A stretch of DNA of 64,000 bases from Pseudomonadota bacterium. GTDB taxonomy: Bacteria > Pseudomonadota > Alphaproteobacteria > Rickettsiales > UBA6187. Shown here piece by piece: positions 25,652 to 42,655 of this stretch; position 1 is the first letter of the stretch, and each line of letters starts with the position of its first letter. The position numbers and the translations under genes are program-made. Under the pieces are notes generated by a model. The model did no database searches. It was not told the origin of the DNA and saw only the letters and a list, made by a program, of their open reading frames with translations. Location of the stretch: assembly GCA_027620075.1 (NCBI GenBank), contig JAQCEY010000007.1, forward strand, positions 43,764-107,763, written 5' to 3'.

Positions 25652-25969
25652 ATGACAAAAGAGCTGTTTAGGCATTTAGTAGAAAACAAGAAAATCCCCG
25701 ATGATACGCACTTCCTAGAAAGTGAAGCAAATGAAGTTCTTGGAAGTTATAAAGGGGCTTTAAATGCTCACCTTGTTGTTGTCGATAAAAACGGTAATAT
25801 CATACAACAATTTAAAGATGGGCACGAAATTGAATCAAAAGAAGTAGCCTATTTTCCTTTCCATAAAGCTGGTAGTACAACAAAAACACAGATCAGCTCT
25901 TTTGTTAGAATTAATATGTCAATAACCACTGAGGAGAAAAATATATGGTTAATATTTTTGAAGAGTTAG
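25652..25969 (+). pseudogene. truncated duplicate of a beta-lactamase-fold head (N-terminal ~85 aa only)
   Basis: EANEVLGSYKGALNAHLVVVDKNGNIIQQFKDGHEIE...FHKAGSTTKTQISSFV aligns with residues ~20-100 of P4 (EPGRILGDYSGPVTSGTVVLDEKGNITQNLQNGINVE...FHKTGSIAKTITSYLV). It then diverges and stops. Confidence 0.6.
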
Positions 25970-27393
25970 TAACAGGAGGTATAGTTAGTCCTGAAACATT
26001 AGAAGACGAACCAGGTAGAATTCTTGGGGATTACTCAGGTCCAGTAACCTCCGGCACGGTTGTTTTAGATGAAAAGGGGAACATTACCCAAAACCTTCAA
26101 AATGGAATAAATGTTGAACCTGCAATAGAACAGCCATTTCATAAAACAGGAAGCATTGCCAAAACTATAACATCATATTTAGTACATGAGTTGGAGAGTA
26201 AAGAGAGTAAAGAGAGTAAAGAAGTTGGTCTTCCTTCAATTGTTATAAATCGAAAAATACACGAATATTTTTCACCTGAAGAGCTCGTTGGTTTAATGCC
26301 AAGTTTTAATGGTAAAGCCAAGGAACTTAAAAAATTAGGTAATCATACTCTGGGTGATTTGCTATGTCATCAAACTGGTTTGGGTGATATTGGATCATAT
26401 GAAGATTTAGTTGAAAAAAGAACCAATGGTAGTTATGGACACTATAAAATGCTAGAAGGCATTGAGGGAACTTTAGGAGAGCCGCAATATTCCAACGCCG
26501 GTTTTGAACTATTGGGCGCTATAGTTGAAAAAGCTACTGGCAAAGAAATGTATGAATTGCTTCATGACAATGTTTTTAAGCCTATGGGTTTGACTGCTGC
26601 ATTTCCTGATAAGAATGGTACGTTACAAGAAATTGGTAATTCTGATGGGATCAAAGAATTTAATACGAGAAAATTAAACCCTACTTTCATGGTTATTGGT
26701 GATGAACTGTTAGAAAAAGATAATGTTAGCTATTATGCATCTGGAGGTCTAATTATGCCACCGGATCAACAGGCAAAACTAATGCATAATATAGGCAATT
26801 CTGAACACATAGCAAAAATGACACAAGAGCAACTTGGTGATGACCAAAGTTTTTACGGATATGGTATTGGAGGCGTTAAGGTTGATGGCAGGATTGGTAA
26901 AAATGGCTCTGTTATTTGTGCTAGAACGGAAATGTGGCATAGAGCTCCTGATAATAATGGCAACGGTTATACAGTTATAAGCACAGCAACATATGTTGGT
27001 GAAGTAGGAAATAATGAAAGACATAGCAGACCAGATGTTGCTGAGGCATTGTTGGAGCGTGTTAGAGGCAAAGGGCTTCAGCCATCTCCTGATGTTTTAA
27101 GAGATGTTGCCGGTGAGATGTCCAGAGATGGAACAATAGCTGAGCTAAATGCAATAATTAAAGAAGAAAAAGAAAAGAAACAAGTTAAACAACTGGATGC
27201 CCTAGACCTTGCAACAATGGCCGATTTATCACCTGAAGTTTTGAGGGAGGCAAAAGCATTAGGTGCAGAAATCACAGCTAAGCCTCCATTACATGGAGAA
27301 AGCAAAGATATGGAAGAAAAAAACTCCTGGGTTGATAAGAGCGCGAGGACTAACAAAAACAATCTAACTCCTGGCGGTGCTAGGGATATATAG
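25945..27393 (+). CDS. tail-array protein P4: beta-lactamase-fold serine hydrolase head plus shared tail
   Basis: SxxK GSIAKT, YSNAG, GKNGS. GAGGAG RBS. Tail ends TPGGARDI. Confidence 0.75.
   Translation: MVNIFEELVTGGIVSPETLEDEPGRILGDYSGPVTSGTVVLDEKGNITQNLQNGINVEPAIEQPFHKTGSIAKTITSYLVHELESKESKESKEVGLPSIVINRKIHEYFSPEELVGLMPSFNGKAKELKKLGNHTLGDLLCHQTGLGDIGSYEDLVEKRTNGSYGHYKMLEGIEGTLGEPQYSNAGFELLGAIVEKATGKEMYELLHDNVFKPMGLTAAFPDKNGTLQEIGNSDGIKEFNTRKLNPTFMVIGDELLEKDNVSYYASGGLIMPPDQQAKLMHNIGNSEHIAKMTQEQLGDDQSFYGYGIGGVKVDGRIGKNGSVICARTEMWHRAPDNNGNGYTVISTATYVGEVGNNERHSRPDVAEALLERVRGKGLQPSPDVLRDVAGEMSRDGTIAELNAIIKEEKEKKQVKQLDALDLATMADLSPEVLREAKALGAEITAKPPLHGESKDMEEKNSWVDKSARTNKNNLTPGGARDI
26194..26220 (+). 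repeat. in-frame 9-bp tandem repeat (GAGAGTAAA)x3
   Basis: Direct reading of the DNA. Encodes ESKESKESK inside P4. Confidence 0.9.
27190..27393 (+). repeat. shared tail module, copy 4 (A+C)
   Basis: QLDALDLATMADLSPEVLREAKALGAEITAKPPLHGESKDMEEKNSWVDKSARTNKNNLTPGGARDI. Confidence 0.85.
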
Positions 27394-27406
27394 TAAGGTA
27401 ATATTT

Positions 27407-34847: not shown

Positions 34848-36164
34848 CTACAATTTTGAGTTAGCAACCTCATCAAATGAATCAAATGCATCGTTTAATG
34901 CTTCCTCTCCGGTTAATTTCTGCCAGCGACGAACAATCACATCGCAATATTTAGGATCAAGCTCAATACAGCGAGCAATACGTCCTGTCTTTTCCGCTGC
35001 AATAAGCGTAGAGCCGGAACCGGCAAATGGATCAAGCACGATATGCCCACGTTTTGTGCAGTCTTTTATGGCATCGGCTATCATAGTCACTGGTTTGACC
35101 GTTGGATGGAGCTTTAAATCAGACTGATTTCGACCAAAGCTATTCACGCCTTTGTAATCCCAAACATTAGTGCGGTAGCGGCCATGTTTGCCAAGCTCAA
35201 TATTGTTTATATGAGGCTTTTTGCCGTGCTTAAAAACTGCTACCAATTCATGTTTGGAGCGGTAAAGTGAACCCATGCCGCCATTATCTTTATTCCAAAC
35301 ACAAATGTTTTTCAGGTCGGCATAGAATTCTTTGCCAGCCCTGATAAGCACATCAATGTGCCTCCAATCCATGCAAATATAATGCAGTGAACCATCCCGA
35401 CTGAAACTACTTGCTTTGTCACAGAAATCTTCAAGAAAACTATAAAACTCTGCGTCAGTCATCTCACCGGATGCCATGGCAAATTCTGCATGTTTTATTT
35501 TACCATTGCCGCATACATGCCCATCAATTGGCACATTATATGGCGGGTCGGTAAACACCATATCAGCACGCTCTGTATCCAGCAGCCTGTCATAGGTTTC
35601 ATTCTTTAGGGCATTTCCACATATTAGAATATGCTGCCCAAGCTGCCAGATATCGCCAAGTTTTGTAATAGCAGGCGAGTTATCAATATCCGGAATCTCA
35701 TCTGCCGGATCGGCTTCTTGTGGCTCGTCAGAATCAATTATTAAATCGATTTCTGCCATTTCAAAACCGGTAATCTCAATATCGAAATTAGTTTCGATGG
35801 AAAGCTCCTTAAGCTCAATTGATAGCAGGTTCTTATCCCAGCCTGCATTCGAGGCAATTTTATTATCCGCAATTATATAGGCACGAATTTGGTTTTCTGA
35901 GAGATGGCTTGACGAAATAACCGGCACTTCCTTCATGCCAAGTTTCTTCGCCGCCTCCACACGACCATGCCCTGCCATAATTCGATTATTACTATCAATA
36001 AGGACAGGATTCATAAATCCAAACTGCTTTAGGCTGTTCGCAATTTGTTGAATCTGTTTGTCGGAGTGTGTGCGGGCATTGTTTTTGTAGGGCTTAAGTT
36101 CTTCTGGATTAATATAAGCAATATGCATCTCATGCGATGCAAGTTTTGTTATAGGCATTGTCAA
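34848..36164 (-). CDS. ParB-like nuclease domain fused to an N6A/N4C DNA methyltransferase
   Basis: ParB-N (NPVLIDSNNRIMAGHGRVEAAKKLG), DPPY motif VFTDPPYNV, AdoMet motif VLDPFAGSGSTLIAAEKTGR (beta-class order). Confidence 0.85.
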   Translation of the reverse strand: MTMPITKLASHEMHIAYINPEELKPYKNNARTHSDKQIQQIANSLKQFGFMNPVLIDSNNRIMAGHGRVEAAKKLGMKEVPVISSSHLSENQIRAYIIADNKIASNAGWDKNLLSIELKELSIETNFDIEITGFEMAEIDLIIDSDEPQEADPADEIPDIDNSPAITKLGDIWQLGQHILICGNALKNETYDRLLDTERADMVFTDPPYNVPIDGHVCGNGKIKHAEFAMASGEMTDAEFYSFLEDFCDKASSFSRDGSLHYICMDWRHIDVLIRAGKEFYADLKNICVWNKDNGGMGSLYRSKHELVAVFKHGKKPHINNIELGKHGRYRTNVWDYKGVNSFGRNQSDLKLHPTVKPVTMIADAIKDCTKRGHIVLDPFAGSGSTLIAAEKTGRIARCIELDPKYCDVIVRRWQKLTGEEALNDAFDSFDEVANSKL

Positions 36165-36325
36165 ATCTCCTTGCCTTCAGAACAAACTGCTCGCGTAACT
36201 TATGTTGAACACAACACAAGGTATGCTGAAAACAGCTGTTCGGTTAAGTAAGCTTTGAGATTGATACGCCTAGCATATCAAGAAACCGGTTCGTCTAGCG
36301 AGTGTTGGCCTGACCAACCCGGGAA

Positions 36326-36377
36326 CTTTTCAGCAGAACTGAAAAGGAAAAAGCAATTGCAGATACCTCATCTGCAA
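36326..36377 (-). terminator. twin hairpins, probable intrinsic terminator for 36515..36739
   Basis: Two perfect 8-bp stems: cttttcag/ctgaaaag (36326-36346) and ttgcagat/atctgcaa (36357-36377). On the minus strand the second is followed by ttgctttttcctttt. Confidence 0.5.
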
Positions 36378-36514
36378 CATTGGTATTGTATCAAATACAA
36401 GATTATATGCAATAAGAAAAATAAAATACTGTATTTGAAATAGGTGGAATAAATTATATTTTGCATAGTAACAAGTGCGGTTAAGATGGTGTAATTTATA
36501 TTTTATCTTTACCG

Positions 36515-36739
36515 CTATTCGCCGCGATAATATTTATCCTTCCACTGGGATTTTTCTTTGCTATCTTCATTATTAGCAGCCTTAGAAAATGGTGACATAA
36601 TAACGGCTATAGCTTCTTTGAAAAAATAAGAAATACCCAGAACCATTCCGGCAAAACTCACTCCTATAAACGCTTGCACCCAAGGTGTTAGTTGAGAAAA
36701 CTTGTTCAATAAATCCGCTGAAAAGCTGTATTCGTTCAT
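36515..36739 (-). CDS. small membrane protein, hypothetical
   Basis: 74 aa with one TM segment WVQAFIGVSFAGMVLGISYFF. Confidence 0.4.
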   Translation of the reverse strand: MNEYSFSADLLNKFSQLTPWVQAFIGVSFAGMVLGISYFFKEAIAVIMSPFSKAANNEDSKEKSQWKDKYYRGE

Positions 36740-36973
36740 ATATGACTCCCTTTGTTATTTAACAAAACGGTCACCAGAGTCAACTGGCGACCGGGAGTTA
36801 GTAACGTGGGCTCATAGAGTTCACGCGCGACAATCTTTAGCCGCGAGGCTTGGACATACATTGCCGCCTCCCGGACATAAAGTCGGAAAGCGACATCTTC
36901 GGCACGCTAATGTTGAGAAGCGCACCAATAACGATTGATGCCAATCGCTACAAGCCAGAGGTTACTAAGCCCC

Positions 36974-36993
36974 GGAACTGCACTTGCAGTTCC
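36974..36993. repeat. perfect 9-bp inverted repeat around a 2-nt centre
   Basis: GGAACTGCA-CT-TGCAGTTCC, inside a GC-rich non-coding stretch. Confidence 0.9.
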
Positions 36994-37114
36994 ACGAATT
37001 AAAATAAAGCAGGCAGGCAAGAGGTCAACAAAAAGAGCGTCAAATATTCTTGAAAACTCCAATATTTCCTGTATTTTCTATTTTGGCGCAATTTTACAGG
37101 AGTGAAGTTCCTTT

Positions 37115-37330
37115 ATGGAAGACGAAATTCTAACCATCAAAGAAGTATCCGAATACCTTAAGATTAAGGAAAAAACCACCTATTCCTTGGCCGCTAAAGG
37201 TGAAATTCCTGGCTTTAAGGTGGGTGGTAGCTGGCGTTTTAGAAAGAATGAAATAAGTCGCTGGATTTTAGACCAAGAAAGAAAAAGCATCAGTAATGCG
37301 GATGGCTTATTAAGAGAAGAACACAAATGA
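37115..37330 (+). CDS. excisionase-family (HTH_17/MerR-like) DNA-binding protein
   Basis: ILTIKEVSEYLKIKEKTTYSLAAKGEIPGFKVGGSWRFRKNEISRWI. ATGA overlap with the TIR-APAZ gene. Confidence 0.8.
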   Translation: MEDEILTIKEVSEYLKIKEKTTYSLAAKGEIPGFKVGGSWRFRKNEISRWILDQERKSISNADGLLREEHK

Positions 37331-38712
37331 CAGAACGTAATGTATTATTTATTAGTCACGCAAACCCAGAGGACAATGTGTTCACCACTTGGCTGGGCGC
37401 CAAGTTATCTGCGGCTGGTTATGAAGTATGGGCTGATGTTCTTGAGTTGGTTGGTGGGCAGGATTGGCAACGTAGGCTTGAAGATGCACTTCGCAACCGT
37501 GCCATTAAGGTATTGCTGGTAGGAACTCAACATGGAGTTGATAAACAAGGTGTCCGCAATGAAATTCAAATTGCCTCCAATACATCAAAACAAATTCAAG
37601 ACACTGACTATATAATTCCTTTGAAACTTGAGAATTTCGACGCGCCATTTCTTATTGCACATGCTCAACACATAGATTTCTCGAAAAGCTGGGCAGCAGG
37701 CCTTAAAGAACTTTTAGAAACTCTAGCCACATATGATGTGCCAAAATTGGAAGCCGAAAGCTCTAACCCTTGGTGCGCAGTACAGTTGGCGCATGGAAAA
37801 GAACCTGTGCAGATAGAAGAAAACATCATTTCCAACTGGTTGAAATTTTCATCACTACCTACCGAGGTACATTTTTATGATTTTAATTCGGGGATTTCGA
37901 TTGGCTTAAGGGATCGCATGCTAAGGAATTCTTCAATTCCTCTGGTTGGCAAAAACCGTGGGTTTATCAGCTTTGCTGATTATCCATCTTTGCAGGAAAT
38001 ACTAGGACCAGATTTGCCTATAAATTTGGTGGAAAGCACTAAAATTGAAGATTTTTTAGAAGAGGGATGGCCATCGCTACAGATAGAATTTTGGGATGCT
38101 CGCAAACACGTTAGCAATATGCTTCGACAGGGATTAGATGCGGTTCTTGCTGCAAAACAGCTTTCATCTTATGAAATGTCGAATAAGAAGCTTTCTTGGT
38201 TCGGTCAAAAAGGTGTGGTTCCTGATAGTCAAATCCGCTTTGGGTGGCCAGACTCATTGCCAGGACGCAGAGTTATTAGGGGCTATTCTGAGAAGAGAAG
38301 AATGCACTGGCATTATGGTATTAGCCCTCAAGTTACAATGTGGCCGGAGCCTCATATAAAATTACGTGGAAACTTAGTCTTTTCTGAAAATGGCACTCTT
38401 CCTATAGACGATGCAAAAAAGATGCACCGCCTCAGACGGTCATTTACAAAATCTTGGCGTAATGCGCGCTGGCGGGACATGATGCTTTCATTCCTTTGGT
38501 GGATAACGGATGGAGCTGAATCTTTAGTGATACCTTTTGGAGAAGAAAAGGGTGCTGTTTTGTTTATTCCAACAATTATATTTGTTTCACCTGTCAGCAT
38601 GCCTGTTGAAATTGAGGAATCCAGCCCAGAAGATCAAGATGATCCAGATTACATTGAAGAACCTTTTGCAGATAATAACTTTGATGATGTTGCTGAAGAG
38701 GTGGTAGCATGA
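37327..38712 (+). CDS. SPARTA TIR-APAZ protein
   Basis: N-terminal TIR (VLFISHANPEDNVFTTWLGAKLSAAGYEVWADV, IDFSKSWAAGLKELLETL), then an APAZ-like region and an acidic C-terminus. 461 aa. 4-nt overlap with the short pAgo gene. Confidence 0.9.
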   Translation: MTERNVLFISHANPEDNVFTTWLGAKLSAAGYEVWADVLELVGGQDWQRRLEDALRNRAIKVLLVGTQHGVDKQGVRNEIQIASNTSKQIQDTDYIIPLKLENFDAPFLIAHAQHIDFSKSWAAGLKELLETLATYDVPKLEAESSNPWCAVQLAHGKEPVQIEENIISNWLKFSSLPTEVHFYDFNSGISIGLRDRMLRNSSIPLVGKNRGFISFADYPSLQEILGPDLPINLVESTKIEDFLEEGWPSLQIEFWDARKHVSNMLRQGLDAVLAAKQLSSYEMSNKKLSWFGQKGVVPDSQIRFGWPDSLPGRRVIRGYSEKRRMHWHYGISPQVTMWPEPHIKLRGNLVFSENGTLPIDDAKKMHRLRRSFTKSWRNARWRDMMLSFLWWITDGAESLVIPFGEEKGAVLFIPTIIFVSPVSMPVEIEESSPEDQDDPDYIEEPFADNNFDDVAEEVVA

Positions 38713-40256
38713 CTATTTCCCCGACAGTTTCTTATTTCGAAGAGCCTCTGCTGGAATTCAAATTCGGCCAGAAATTGGTTTATCCTCGTGATGGGCTATT
38801 TCTTTATGGCCCTGTGGATGAAAGTAATGACAATAAGCAAATACGTTATGGCGTAATCTCTACAGCCGGCGGGTTGAAACATTTCAAAGCGTGGGCCAAA
38901 TCCATGAACGGGTTTATTGATATTCCAGCACCAGGACCTCGTTCTCGCAGCAATATGCCGCATCATGTGCCATTTCCAGGCTTTACTGAAGCTTTCGGTG
39001 CGGAATGGCCAACAGAGCCAACGATTGCACTTGGTGATATTGATCCAAAAGAATTATCTCGTGTATTACGGATTGGAAATCGACATGAAGCTGTACAAAA
39101 AGCAGTGGATCTGTTTGTTAGTCCAATGTTAAACGCAGTGAACCGCATGGAGAATCCACCATCTTTTTGGTTTGTGGTGATTCCTGAAGATGTATACCAA
39201 CTAGGACGTCCTTTAAGTCAGGTGCCAAGGGGCGAGCGAGTACTGGGTGCTGTTCATATCACTCAGGCCAAAGCTAAAATGTTGCAAGCACAGCCCACTC
39301 TTTTTGGAACAGATGAGGTGGAAGCTGAAGTTTACAAATATGCAGCACATTTTCGTCGCCAACTTAAGGCACGCCTTCTTAAAGATAAGATTGTCACACA
39401 GCTAGTGCGGGAAACCACACTGGAACCACAGGCGTTTTTAACATCATCGGGTCATCTATTACGACCAGTGGAAGATGCAGCTACAATTGCGTGGAAGCTG
39501 GGTACAGGCTGTTATTACAAAGCAGGTGGACGACCATGGCAATTAGCAGATGTAAGACCTGGTGTTTGCTATGTTGGCCTTGTCTATAAACAAGATGATT
39601 CAGCACAAGATCGCCGCTATTCTGTTTGTGCAGCTCAAATGTTTCTTTCTAATGGTGAAGGTATTGTATTCCGTGGAGCTTTAGGACCATGGTATCACAC
39701 CGAAAAGAAGGAATTCCACCTTGATAGAAAATCTGCAAAGTCTTTAATAAGTACGATAGTATCTGAATATACAGATTCACATGGAGCACCTCCGAAAGAG
39801 TTATTCATTCATGCTCAGGCAGCATTTTCTCACGAAGAATGGACTGGATTTTTTGAAGGGTGCCCTGATACCGTCAATTTAGTTGGCATTCAAATTACGG
39901 ATGCAAAAGATGGTTTAAAATTATTCCGTCCTGGTGAATATCCTGTTATGCGCGGAATGGCTCTGAAGATCAATGAACGTCAAGCATATCTTTGGACAGC
40001 TGGTTATGTTCCCCGTCTAGATACATATATGGGACCAGAAACCCCAAACCCGATTTTTATTAAAGTACAGCGAGGCAAATGCCCGTTAGATCAAGTTTTG
40101 CAAGACATTCTCGGCCTAACAAAGATTAACTTTAATTCCTGCCTTTTGAATGACCGTATGCCCGTGACAATCAAATTTGCCAATGCTGTAGGTGACGTTC
40201 TTACCTCGGCACCCTTAGATAGTGAGCCGAAGCTTCCTTTCAAGTATTATATTTAG
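38709..40256 (+). CDS. short prokaryotic Argonaute (MID-PIWI, catalytically inactive type) of SPARTA
   Basis: 515 aa. YKAGGRPWQLADVRPGVCYVGLVYK, CAAQMFLSNGEGIVFRG, C-terminal LPFKYYI. Size and motifs match short pAgos paired with TIR-APAZ. Confidence 0.9.
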   Translation: MTISPTVSYFEEPLLEFKFGQKLVYPRDGLFLYGPVDESNDNKQIRYGVISTAGGLKHFKAWAKSMNGFIDIPAPGPRSRSNMPHHVPFPGFTEAFGAEWPTEPTIALGDIDPKELSRVLRIGNRHEAVQKAVDLFVSPMLNAVNRMENPPSFWFVVIPEDVYQLGRPLSQVPRGERVLGAVHITQAKAKMLQAQPTLFGTDEVEAEVYKYAAHFRRQLKARLLKDKIVTQLVRETTLEPQAFLTSSGHLLRPVEDAATIAWKLGTGCYYKAGGRPWQLADVRPGVCYVGLVYKQDDSAQDRRYSVCAAQMFLSNGEGIVFRGALGPWYHTEKKEFHLDRKSAKSLISTIVSEYTDSHGAPPKELFIHAQAAFSHEEWTGFFEGCPDTVNLVGIQITDAKDGLKLFRPGEYPVMRGMALKINERQAYLWTAGYVPRLDTYMGPETPNPIFIKVQRGKCPLDQVLQDILGLTKINFNSCLLNDRMPVTIKFANAVGDVLTSAPLDSEPKLPFKYYI

Positions 40257-40269
40257 AGAATAAAAAGCA

Positions 40270-41811
40270 ATGCCTCAATCTGCAGAGAATCAAACAGTAA
40301 ATTTTATAGTGATAGCCGAGCGAGGCTCACTTGGGAATGCCCCAAACACATGCTATTTATGGGTAAATAACTGGGATGACTTCGGCTTCAAAACCACTTT
40401 TGCATTATACTACATTACCAAAGATGGTGAACAAAAAGATTTAGGACGCATCAGTATTGCTAATGAAGGATTAACTGGGGGCTATGTCCAACTACCAGAA
40501 TCACCTTTCATTCAATTGCCTGAAAACTATTGCTCCCTTGGCCATAGCCAAGGCTATTATGAAGAATTAATGGGTTTACCGTCTTTAATTAGAATATCTA
40601 TTCTAAGAGGTCTAAGAGACTGCGCCTACGATCAGGAAATTTTTGAAAGGTTCCAAGATGAGAATGCAGTTTCTACTTCTTTATTGCGCCATGTCAGTGT
40701 CCAAAATGTAAATTATCTATTTCCTAATATACTTAGAGGGCATGCCGTTGCAACTCCATATAAATTTCAATTTCGATTAAATGGAAACGAAACCACAGCT
40801 ATTGATGTAAGTGTTGTACCCGACTCCACTCCTCCAACTAATATACACGTCTTAATTGGTAGAAATGGAGTGGGGAAAACCAGAATCTTATCTGGCCTAG
40901 CAGATCAGATAACTAAAAATCCTTCACCTGCTGATATTAGCCAAAATGGAGAAATAGTATTTTCTCAGAACACCTTAGGTTTCTTGGAGCAGAATGGGCA
41001 AAGCGACCGGTTCACGAATCTTGTTACCGTAGTATTTAGTGCATTTGACCATTTCAAGCCGATAAGGAACAATCAGGACAGAGATAGTATTCCTTGTCAG
41101 TATATTGGTCTAAAAAGTGAAGATGGGAGCTCTTTTAGAACACCGAGTGACTTGAAGCAAGACTTTAACAAATCAGTAGAAATATGTCTCAACAGTCAGA
41201 GAAAGTCTCGCTGGATAGATGCAATCAGAATTCTCTGCTCAGATCCGATATTTAAAGAATATGAACTTGAGAATACTGCTTTAGACGCCGAACATGTTGC
41301 TAAAATTACAGGTATTTTTGATAAGTTAAGTTCAGGTCATAAAATTATCCTTTTAACAGTTACCAAATTAGTGGAGCTCGTAGATGAAAAAACGCTGGTT
41401 CTAATTGACGAGCCTGAGAACCATTTACACCCCCCATTGTTATCTTCATTTATTAGAACCGTGTCAGATCTATTAATCAAAAGAAATGCCGTTGCTATAG
41501 TGGCAACTCATTCGCCCGTGGTACTCCAAGAGGTGCCACAATCTTGTGTAACTAAAATTGATAGAGTTAGATCTGAATATAGTTTGTATAGGCCTGACAT
41601 AGAAACGTATGGAGAGAATGTAGGGACGCTCACGCGCGAAGTATTTCAGTTAGAGGTTATGGATAGCGGTTTTCACAAAACTATTAGCGACCACCTAAAT
41701 TCTGACAAAAATTATGATAATCTTCTTAATTCCTTCGGGGGTAAAATTGGCTCTGAGGGAAAAGCTATTGCTCGCTCTATAATTCTTACTAGCGGAGACA
41801 GCAATGCATAG
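40270..41811 (+). CDS. ptuA: Septu PtuA-like AAA/ABC-type ATPase with a ~190-aa N-terminal extension
   Basis: Walker A GRNGVGKTR at about aa 197, Walker B/D-loop LVLIDEPENHLHP, ATHSP. Confidence 0.6.
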   Translation: MPQSAENQTVNFIVIAERGSLGNAPNTCYLWVNNWDDFGFKTTFALYYITKDGEQKDLGRISIANEGLTGGYVQLPESPFIQLPENYCSLGHSQGYYEELMGLPSLIRISILRGLRDCAYDQEIFERFQDENAVSTSLLRHVSVQNVNYLFPNILRGHAVATPYKFQFRLNGNETTAIDVSVVPDSTPPTNIHVLIGRNGVGKTRILSGLADQITKNPSPADISQNGEIVFSQNTLGFLEQNGQSDRFTNLVTVVFSAFDHFKPIRNNQDRDSIPCQYIGLKSEDGSSFRTPSDLKQDFNKSVEICLNSQRKSRWIDAIRILCSDPIFKEYELENTALDAEHVAKITGIFDKLSSGHKIILLTVTKLVELVDEKTLVLIDEPENHLHPPLLSSFIRTVSDLLIKRNAVAIVATHSPVVLQEVPQSCVTKIDRVRSEYSLYRPDIETYGENVGTLTREVFQLEVMDSGFHKTISDHLNSDKNYDNLLNSFGGKIGSEGKAIARSIILTSGDSNA

Positions 41812-42655
41812 TTTGACTAGGCCCGAGATAACTTTTGATGATTGCTATAATTTGTGTATCTCTAGAAAAAGACCGCCACTTAAAGAAAATCTGGAGCGCA
41901 TACATCCTTCTCTAAGTTCATCCGCAAATTTGTATGATAATAAAGCAACCAATAGCGGACTAAATGAATTATCTCCAATAAGAATTTCGGATTTAACGCC
42001 TATAACCGCAGAAGATTTAAAGAAACTTTATACTCAGCAAATGGTTGGGAGCAATGGACCTGGACGTTCTACGTATGATAAAATTTTAGTCTCCGCAAAA
42101 CAGAAACGGTGCTGTTTCTGTTCGTATGAAGAACCAACAGAGCTGGACCACTTTCTTCCCAAGTCTGTTTTCGCTGAGTTTTCTATACTACCATTAAATC
42201 TAATTCCGAGTTGCCATCGTTGTAACAAACTGAAGTTAGAAGATGTCCCTACAAGCTTAGAAACGACTTATATCCATCCATATTATGAGGAGTATAGAGG
42301 AATAGCTTGGCTAAAAGCATCTCTAAATTTTGATATAGGCAACTCACCTACAATCATTTATTTTGTTGACAGCGAATTAAACCAATCTCATCCAGACTTG
42401 GCTCCTAGAATCAATTTCCAATTTACGAAACTAGACCTTGGTTCGCGATATTCACAGCAATCCGCAGGTGAAGTGTCTGGTATTAGACATAGAATACAGG
42501 GGCTGTTTTCCAGTGGCGGGGTAGAAAGTGTCAGGTCTCATCTAAAAGAAGAGGCAAAATCCCGAGAACAGAATAATAAAAACTCTTGGCAAGCTGCTCT
42601 ATACCATAGCCTCTACCAGAGTAATAAATTTTGTACTATGGATTGGGTGCTGTAA
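41804..42655 (+). CDS. ptuB: Septu PtuB-like HNH endonuclease
   Basis: CCFCSYEEPTELDHFLPKS...NLIPSCHRCNKLK HNH motif. 8-nt overlap with the ATPase gene. Confidence 0.6.
   Translation: MHSLTRPEITFDDCYNLCISRKRPPLKENLERIHPSLSSSANLYDNKATNSGLNELSPIRISDLTPITAEDLKKLYTQQMVGSNGPGRSTYDKILVSAKQKRCCFCSYEEPTELDHFLPKSVFAEFSILPLNLIPSCHRCNKLKLEDVPTSLETTYIHPYYEEYRGIAWLKASLNFDIGNSPTIIYFVDSELNQSHPDLAPRINFQFTKLDLGSRYSQQSAGEVSGIRHRIQGLFSSGGVESVRSHLKEEAKSREQNNKNSWQAALYHSLYQSNKFCTMDWVL

Follow-up and report, generated by a model that had tools for sequence, protein, structure and literature searches.

A predicted SPARTA defence locus in a Pseudomonadota metagenome-assembled genome and its possible carriage by a small serine-recombinase element

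Two overlapping genes at positions 37327 to 40256 of a 64,000-nucleotide (nt) stretch of DNA from a Pseudomonadota bacterium (contig JAQCEY010000007.1 of assembly GCA_027620075.1; the whole stretch is referred to below as the window) raise the question of whether they make up an intact SPARTA system for defence against plasmids and phages, that is, a TIR-APAZ protein paired with a short prokaryotic Argonaute (pAgo), and of whether such a system stands by itself or is carried as part of something larger. As far as the first part of the question is concerned, the locus is very probably a canonical and intact SPARTA of short-pAgo clade S2A, and its sequence predicts that it would be functional by the mechanism set out below.

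A first-pass annotation of the window had described a 461-amino-acid (aa) TIR protein with an APAZ-like remainder, overlapping by 4 nt a 515-aa MID-PIWI short Argonaute, and had taken the two for a SPARTA pair. Both open reading frames (ORFs) are present exactly as described, with the TIR-APAZ gene at 37327..38712 and the pAgo gene at 38709..40256, both on the forward strand, both starting with ATG and sharing 4 nt, and the peptides LFISHANPEDNVFTTWL, IDFSKSWAAGLKELL, YKAGGRPWQLADVRPGVCYVGLVYK and LPFKYYI-stop were all found in them. In the 461-aa protein, the Pfam TIR_2 domain was located at aa 8-130 (E 1e-21), the APAZ region makes up the remainder and an acidic C-terminal tail spans approximately aa 426-461. 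The PADLOC profile Aga_TIR-PNTD1-PNTD2 matched this protein over profile positions 1-435 of 443 (E 4.4e-147), and aa 3-429 were aligned with the TIR-APAZ chains of solved complexes in the PDB (8qlo_A, 2.8e-55; 8fex_A, 3.6e-52; 8ifk_A, 1.4e-50). The 515-aa protein was matched by the PADLOC profile pAgo_I over positions 3-493 of 493 (E 5.6e-203) and by the pAgo chains of the same complexes (8qlo_B, 1e-128; 8ifk_B, 2e-127; 8fex_B, 5e-124), with aa 8-515 aligned against residues 5-507. A Pfam search of the 515-aa protein gave no match, and the long-pAgo profiles of PADLOC (pAgo_II) matched it only at aa 416-494, with E values of 1e-5 to 1e-6. Its short-pAgo length and its end-to-end alignment with the 507-aa SPARTA pAgos indicate a MID-PIWI protein with no N or PAZ domain. 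The TIR, APAZ and MID-PIWI profiles were thus matched over their full or nearly full length, and the two-gene architecture that had been proposed stands.

The residues on which the activity of characterised SPARTA systems depends were then located in both proteins. In the TIR-APAZ proteins of the Map and Crt systems, the E77A substitution abolishes NADase activity (PMC10474274, PMC10899771); the corresponding glutamate here is E79, which aligns with E77 of Map and Crt and with E79 of Bab and is invariant in all 45 orthologues taken from related loci. The acidic C-terminal tail of BabSPARTA is autoinhibitory and blocks the nucleic-acid cleft (PMC10899771), and the last 36 aa of the present TIR-APAZ protein contain 15 aspartates or glutamates and neither lysine nor arginine, the median for orthologues being 18 acidic residues in 34 aa. 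In the pAgo, the PIWI catalytic tetrad is replaced in SPARTA at positions 284, 328, 362 and 484 of MapAgo, CrtAgo and BabAgo (PMC11156904), and the equivalent residues are V292, F336, Q370 and N492, all four of them non-acidic. Across 117 pAgo homologues these positions are occupied by V, by F or Y, by K, T, R or Q, and by N or D, respectively, and a complete catalytic tetrad was found in none of the 117. Therefore, the expectation of the first-pass annotation that the tetrad would be lacking and the TIR glutamate retained was borne out, and with neither a complete DEDX tetrad nor N and PAZ domains the 515-aa protein is not a long pAgo. It was also observed that PMC11156904 names Arg362 and Asn484 for CrtSPARTA, whereas the Crt chain 8fex_B has Lys362 and Asp484 and the published names fit MapAgo; the mapping was made by position, which is common to Map, Crt and Bab, and not by residue name, and the positions are unaffected.

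The pocket that would hold the 5' end of the guide is similarly conserved. The MID residues R216, K220 and Q231 are invariant in the 117 homologues, K271 is aligned to K263 of the characterised SPARTA pAgos, and Ile515 at the C-terminus, which is kept in 115 of 117 homologues, is the equivalent of Ile507, by which the metal at the 5'-phosphate of the guide is coordinated (PMC10474274). Mutagenesis has shown that Y262, K504/Y505, K395 and D133 are needed for pAgo dimerisation or guide contact (PMC10899771), and the equivalents of these residues in the present protein are Y270, K512/Y513, K404 and E148. Taken together, the profiles, the pAgo length, the tetrad, the TIR glutamate, the acidic tail, the MID pocket and the gene order mean that every feature of SPARTA that can be examined in a sequence is found at this locus.

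Based on the characterised systems, the proposed mechanism would run as follows. The TIR-APAZ protein and the pAgo would form a heterodimer that is kept inactive by the acidic tail, and the MID pocket of the pAgo, with R216, K220, Q231 and the carboxylate of Ile515 with Mg2+, would take up small transcriptome-derived RNAs that carry a 5'-phosphate. Once the guide has paired with complementary single-stranded DNA from an invader that is highly transcribed or present in many copies, the tail would be displaced, and the displacement would lead to pAgo-pAgo dimerisation and then to tetramerisation, by which composite TIR active sites would be formed around Glu79. These sites would hydrolyse NAD(P)+, and the invaded cell would cease to grow or would die. 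No cleavage is expected from the PIWI domain itself, given that none of its four tetrad positions is acidic.

Three points weigh against a simple transfer of this mechanism to the present locus. The identity to the characterised SPARTA systems is moderate (42-43% between the pAgo and the Bab, Map and Crt short pAgos of 507 aa each; a best TIR-APAZ match at about E-55), and two of the four Ct-contacting MID residues of BabAgo differ, with R72 replaced by H86 and H251 by T259. In addition, the first MID residue is Arg and not the His found in all structurally characterised SPARTAs, so the guide preference could differ; the same Arg occurs in all 117 nearest homologues, and HK and RK were both described as canonical short-pAgo MID motifs by Ryazansky et al. 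(PMC6299218).

In other respects the locus resembles the Bab, Map and Crt systems closely (PDB 8qlo, 8ifk and 8fex; PMC9097488). The order is the same, with TIR-APAZ followed by the short pAgo and overlapping genes, and the lengths of 461 and 515 aa compare with approximately 450 and 507 aa; the TIR glutamate, the acidic tail, the dead PIWI domain, the K and Q of the MID pocket, the KYYI end and the interface and guide-contact residues are all held in common. Unlike those systems, the present pair is preceded by an HTH_17 gene and is carried by an apparent serine-recombinase element. The host is a low-GC Pseudomonadota metagenome-assembled genome (MAG), and the nearest relatives come mostly from assemblies of Alphaproteobacteria and Acidobacteriota. 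The other short-pAgo systems, SPARSA (SIR2-APAZ) and SPARDA (DREN-APAZ), represented in the PDB by 9om4, 9jsb and 8in8, likewise combine a MID-PIWI short pAgo with an APAZ partner and follow the same logic, in which guide-dependent sensing of a target activates a toxic effector; they differ in that the effector here is a predicted TIR NADase, and their PDB chains matched with E values of 1e-45 to 5e-29 over the C-terminal ~300 aa only.

The exact pAgo sequence has been deposited from a Proteobacteria MAG as "hypothetical protein O2970_10465". The next relatives are metagenomic and 80-84% identical, and hundreds more were found at 60-67% identity. In 55 related genome loci, a TIR-APAZ gene lies directly upstream of the pAgo gene in essentially every case where the upstream sequence suffices. 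Close relatives were found on 73 plasmids, mostly rhizobial, of which 44 are conjugative, and all eight plasmid-borne relatives listed carry the annotation "hypothetical protein". Given the deposit as a hypothetical protein and the relatives in genomes and on plasmids, the locus is, as judged by these comparisons, a new uncharacterised member of the large RK-type branch of a known family.

As to whether the pair belongs to something larger, the first-pass annotation had placed it in an island with a serine recombinase, and a gene of this kind does lie 3.4 kilobases (kb) upstream on the other strand. It encodes a large serine recombinase of 554 aa, presumed to be an integrase (32280..33944, minus strand; Pfam Resolvase 7.1e-38, Recombinase 4.3e-13) and related to the integrases of phages WO and AcaML1. 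It is overlapped by the gene for a DUF2924 protein (33941..34339, minus strand; Pfam DUF2924 3.2e-38) and is followed by genes for a DUF5681 protein (34414..34836, minus strand; Pfam DUF5681 4.2e-16) and for a fusion of ParB-N with an N6_N4 DNA methyltransferase (34848..36164, minus strand; N6_N4_Mtase 2.4e-32, ParB_N 1.4e-07; PADLOC MTase_II 7.7e-104). Next in position is the gene for a protein of 74 aa (36515..36739, minus strand), in which a single hydrophobic stretch is putatively transmembrane and for which a Pfam search gave no match. On the forward strand, the SPARTA genes are directly preceded by a gene for a 71-aa HTH_17 protein of the excisionase family, also MAD1-like (37115..37330; Pfam HTH_17 E 1.4e-16), the stop codon of which overlaps the start codon of the TIR-APAZ gene (ATGA). 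The GC content of the SPARTA genes is 42.7%, in comparison to 38.3% in the rest of the window, which places them at the 99th percentile among segments of 2930 base pairs (bp), and the GC maximum of the window lies at approximately 36700-39630; the segment is thus richer in GC than its surroundings, as had been claimed, though only by about 4 points.

This backbone recurs in related elements on otherwise unrelated contigs (L076, L080 and L083-85). Relative to the copies in the window, the recombinase is 45-65% identical, the DUF2924 protein 34-61%, the 74-aa membrane protein 54-61% and the HTH_17 protein 71-80% in all of these contigs, and the ParB-N/N6_N4 methyltransferase is 55-59% identical in L076 and L083-85. 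Only the cargo that follows HTH_17 differs. In L076 it consists of a 732-aa long pAgo and a DpnII/MboI-family nuclease, in L080 of an AAA ATPase and an S8 protease followed by a type I restriction-modification (R-M) system, and in L083-85 of a type I R-M system. Given the long pAgo in L076 and the SPARTA pair in the window, two different Argonaute systems use the same putatively mobile slot; in L076 (7001-10542), the 732-aa protein in this slot carries a Piwi domain and is followed by the nuclease gene. Four related elements have a conserved copy of the 74-aa ORF in the corresponding place, which indicates that it is a real gene, and its product might act as a toxin, as an exclusion factor or as a membrane sensor. 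In addition, the contig of an 84% relative of the pAgo has the recombinase, DUF2924, DUF5681 and ParB-methylase genes beside its SPARTA genes, in another arrangement.

Between the 74-aa ORF and the HTH_17 gene lies a structured RNA of approximately 230-250 nt (36750..37005, minus strand), divergent from the operon that contains HTH_17 and SPARTA. Attention was drawn to it because the contig L001, the SPARTA DNA of which is about 71% identical to that of the window, has a 72-nt block there at 90% identity. The region is rich in GC and apparently non-coding, its predicted fold has an energy of -110 kcal/mol (z = -7.7), and its end, just upstream of the 74-aa ORF, is formed by a hairpin and then a run of U. 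A core at 36781-36876 weakly resembles the Rfam family sRNA-Xcc1 (RF02221), with alignments over model positions 1-87 of 87 in both the window and the L001 copy and scores of 24.4 and 28.7 bits, respectively, both below the gathering score of 53; a search with Rfam at gathering thresholds over 28-46 kb of the window returned nothing. A profile of the RNA gave matches in L076, L080 and L083-85, each time at the position that it has in the window, and copies were located at L001:6334-6548, L076:6640-6898, L080:6680-6890 and L083:7251-7448 as well as in L061-L074. Among 13 distinct aligned copies, 26 of the 55 predicted pairs have compensatory changes on both sides. Alternative folds are possible, since two CCGGG(G/A)G segments lie upstream of ACUCCCGG and each is able to pair with it.

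A scan with the RNA motif identified 14 metagenome loci, only one of which has SPARTA, and this one is the same contig as L001; a scan of viral contigs found nothing. The ORFs downstream of the RNA are not conserved in the 14 metagenome loci, whereas the 74-aa ORF is conserved within the recombinase-element family. We considered whether the RNA could be specific to SPARTA, for example as a dedicated source of guides, and rejected this on account of the 1 in 14 loci and of the non-Argonaute cargo in the related elements. The covariation and the distribution of its copies argue that the RNA is real and structured, and that it is a part of the element, and a member of a wider family, rather than a part of SPARTA. 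Integrons, genomic islands and the phage APSE have been reported to carry members of the sRNA-Xcc1 family, and the present RNA is likewise associated with mobile elements; unlike the 87-nt Xcc1 model, it is approximately 230 nt long and has extra covarying helices 5' of the Xcc1-like core. In the 84% relative, ORFs of 742 and 165 aa (L001:2454-5442) lie next to SPARTA and the RNA, and the carrier in L001 may differ from that of the window, as no HTH_17 or serine recombinase gene is present in the 6.6 kb available upstream.

The recombinase-proximal end of the element could be placed by comparison of assemblies. Rightwards from 32068, two independent assemblies that come from the same organism match the window at 100% identity, but they differ from it to the left (blastn breakpoint at 32068; left junction 32062..32068), and a third contig, L058, ends exactly at 32068. 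In the NCBI MAG, the junction coincides with the end of a complete tRNA-Ser(GCU) (L057:3276-3365), and the flank in the window has only CCGCCA in common with it. To the left of the junction, the tRNA-Ser(GCU) of L057 is preceded by PrmC and DUF4167, while the window has a GNAT/GNAT/APH(6) cluster. This pattern suggests population heterogeneity or a rearrangement at the recombinase-proximal end. No tRNA was found in the window by ARAGORN, and a search for the 3' end of tRNA-Ser elsewhere in the window found none. Only short repeats at chance level were detected in 31.8-43 kb, with no pair resembling attachment sites, and no empty site was found, the look-up with the DUF2269 protein of the right flank having returned only island-bearing contigs.

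The conserved backbone, the differing cargo and the left junction at 32068 together suggest an integrative element of about 10.6 kb that would extend from 32068 to approximately 42660, with the backbone at 32280-37330 and the cargo at 37327-42655. On a further reading, which we offer tentatively, as somewhat short of an even chance, the SPARTA pair would be just one of the exchangeable cassettes of a so far undescribed family of small integrative elements with a serine recombinase and a conserved control module. The control module would consist of the ~230-nt Xcc1-like RNA and the 74-aa membrane protein on one strand and the HTH_17 leader on the other, and its slot would take SPARTA with a Septu-like pair, a long pAgo with a DpnII-type nuclease, an AAA/S8 protease pair or a type I R-M system. 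No description of the carrier element was found in the literature searched on DUF2924, DUF5681 and HTH-led defence cargo. Several observations weigh against this account of the locus as a whole: the right junction of the element was not found, and with the right border undefined the element may be larger than 10.6 kb; the flank to the left in the window itself does not consist of a tRNA, and a local rearrangement is therefore possible; and the candidate sigma-70-like promoter of the cargo operon (37050..37077, forward strand; TTGAAA-16-TATTTT, 9 of 12 matches), which lies 38 nt before the HTH_17 start, shows no more than a match to the consensus, in a region that has no enrichment over shuffled sequences.

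A comparable arrangement is known from P4-like satellites, P2 prophage hotspots and SXT integrative and conjugative element hotspots, in all of which a conserved mobile backbone provides a position for exchangeable defence systems. The backbone here is a different one, consisting of a large serine recombinase, DUF2924, DUF5681 and a ParB-methylase, and the slot is headed by HTH_17 and accompanied by a divergent structured RNA and the 74-aa membrane protein.

If the element is the carrier, it could also be the unit of selection, in which case SPARTA would serve the mobile element itself, by excluding competing plasmids and phages or by stabilising the element. We regard this as plausible, though less likely than not. 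The different defence systems in the cargo slot of related elements, the linkage of the 84% relative to the same backbone genes, the presence of close relatives on plasmids, many of them conjugative, and the GC content of the SPARTA genes, the most deviant in the window, are all consistent with it. Most of the 55 related SPARTA loci, however, are without such a backbone at the sensitivity used, and the idea is compatible with the molecular mechanism described above, with a benefit to the host and a benefit to the element not being separable from sequence.

The HTH_17 gene raises another alternative, namely that its product is a dedicated third component of a regulated three-gene SPARTA, which we consider improbable. 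In its favor are the overlap of the HTH_17 stop with the TIR-APAZ start, a C-terminus that is about 10-14 aa longer than in the homologues of 57-65 aa and runs into the TIR-APAZ start, and a score of 80.0 bits against the NCBIfam model antiphage_MADS1, a helix-turn-helix model of a defence system, which is exactly at its cut-off of 80. Nevertheless, in none of the 55 related loci, nor in L059 and L060, the 82-84% relatives, was TIR-APAZ found to be directly preceded by an HTH_17 gene, and only the APAZ protein was found to be specifically associated with short pAgos by Koopal et al. (PMC9097488). Furthermore, close homologues of the protein (71-82% identity, usually 57-65 aa) lie 6-47 nt upstream of different defence operons in the six other contexts sampled. 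Apart from the long pAgo, AAA/S8 protease and type I R-M cargo already described, these include systems of an SNF2 helicase with a methyltransferase (L078 and L086-88) and a BREX-like DUF499/PglZ/methyltransferase system (L089-91), and before the BREX-like and SNF2/methyltransferase systems the gene is found outside the recombinase-element backbone. HTH_17 was thus rejected as a SPARTA subunit, given its absence upstream in related SPARTA loci and the position of its homologues at the head of other defence operons; it most likely controls the transcription of whichever cargo follows it. The extra C-terminal residues of the copy in the window reach the TIR-APAZ start, as would be seen had the cargo junction taken the place of the original stop. 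The score at the cut-off also led us to consider MADS, the methylation-associated defence system, which was rejected: the ATPase encoded downstream of the pAgo scored only 37.5 against the MAD3 cut-off of 420, and no other MADS genes occur in the cluster. With its score at the cut-off and no match for the companions MAD2-8 in the cluster, the HTH_17 protein is MAD1-like and the locus is not MADS.

The downstream genes encode a PtuA-like AAA/ABC ATPase (40270..41811, forward strand; PADLOC PDC-M01A 7.6e-181, PtuA 2.3e-161; Pfam AAA_21 and AAA_15) and a PtuB-like HNH-family partner (41804..42655, forward strand; PADLOC PDC-M01B 5.2e-82; a weak Pfam HNH_4 match, E 0.0064). The first of these starts 13 nt past the pAgo stop and the two overlap by 8 nt, so that HTH_17, TIR-APAZ, pAgo, PtuA-like and PtuB-like form a row of five co-directional and tightly packed genes. 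The two genes named by the first-pass annotation hold, but the HTH_17 leader, the Septu-like pair and the upstream RNA had been missed. In comparison with Septu and PDC-M01, the pair has the same ATPase and HNH-type partner, overlapping genes and full-length matches to the PDC-M01A, PDC-M01B and PtuA profiles of PADLOC. It is closest to the candidate family PDC-M01 and not to the NCBIfam PtuA family, against which the ATPase scored 47 bits with a cut-off of 500, and it is a system separate from SPARTA. The GC content of the pair is 38.6%, which is host-like and unlike the 42.7% of SPARTA, and this suggests that the pair was acquired separately.

The close packing could also mean that SPARTA and the PtuA/PtuB-like pair form a composite four-gene system, since only the 13-nt gap and no convincing terminator separates the pAgo gene from the PtuA-like gene on the same strand. 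We find this slightly less probable still than the three-gene arrangement: no full-length PtuA or PtuB homologue flanks the 55 related loci, weak partial ATPase matches being found in L005 and L051, the GC content of the two pairs differs, and each pair has full-length matches to PADLOC systems that stand alone. That the locus is an inactive relic, or another type of short-pAgo system (SPARSA or SPARDA) or a long pAgo, is scarcely credible, as both ORFs are intact and of full length with all key residues kept, the effector domain is TIR and not SIR2 or a nuclease, three independent assemblies contain identical copies, and the PDB matches of the pAgo to SPARTA reach E-128 in comparison to E-45 or weaker for the short pAgos of other systems.

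Outside the element, just left of the junction, two GNAT acetyltransferases and an APH(6)-family aminoglycoside/hydroxyurea kinase are encoded in a row at 29206-31093 (minus strand), which may represent a resistance-like cassette. Further to the left, a 207-bp repeat with 84.5% identity (27188-27394 and 28995-29201) coincides with the 3' ends of the ORFs 25945-27393 and 27377-29200, which are probably tandem paralogues, the second being of the Peptidase_S66 family by the annotation of the contig.

In general, SPARTA has been well understood since 2022, and the present locus adds a member to the family and no new principle. The RK-type subclade, which is annotated only as "hypothetical protein", could serve for tests of guide preference or for nucleic-acid detection based on SPARTA. 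The occurrence of SPARTA as apparent cargo of a phage-type serine-recombinase element that can sit at a tRNA gene would help to explain the patchy distribution of the system. The combination of an RNA, a small membrane protein and HTH_17 with a replaceable slot provides an example of elements that package, and possibly regulate, immune genes, and if the RNA and HTH module couples the expression of the cargo to the state of the element or of infection, it would represent a general regulatory platform for mobile defence genes.

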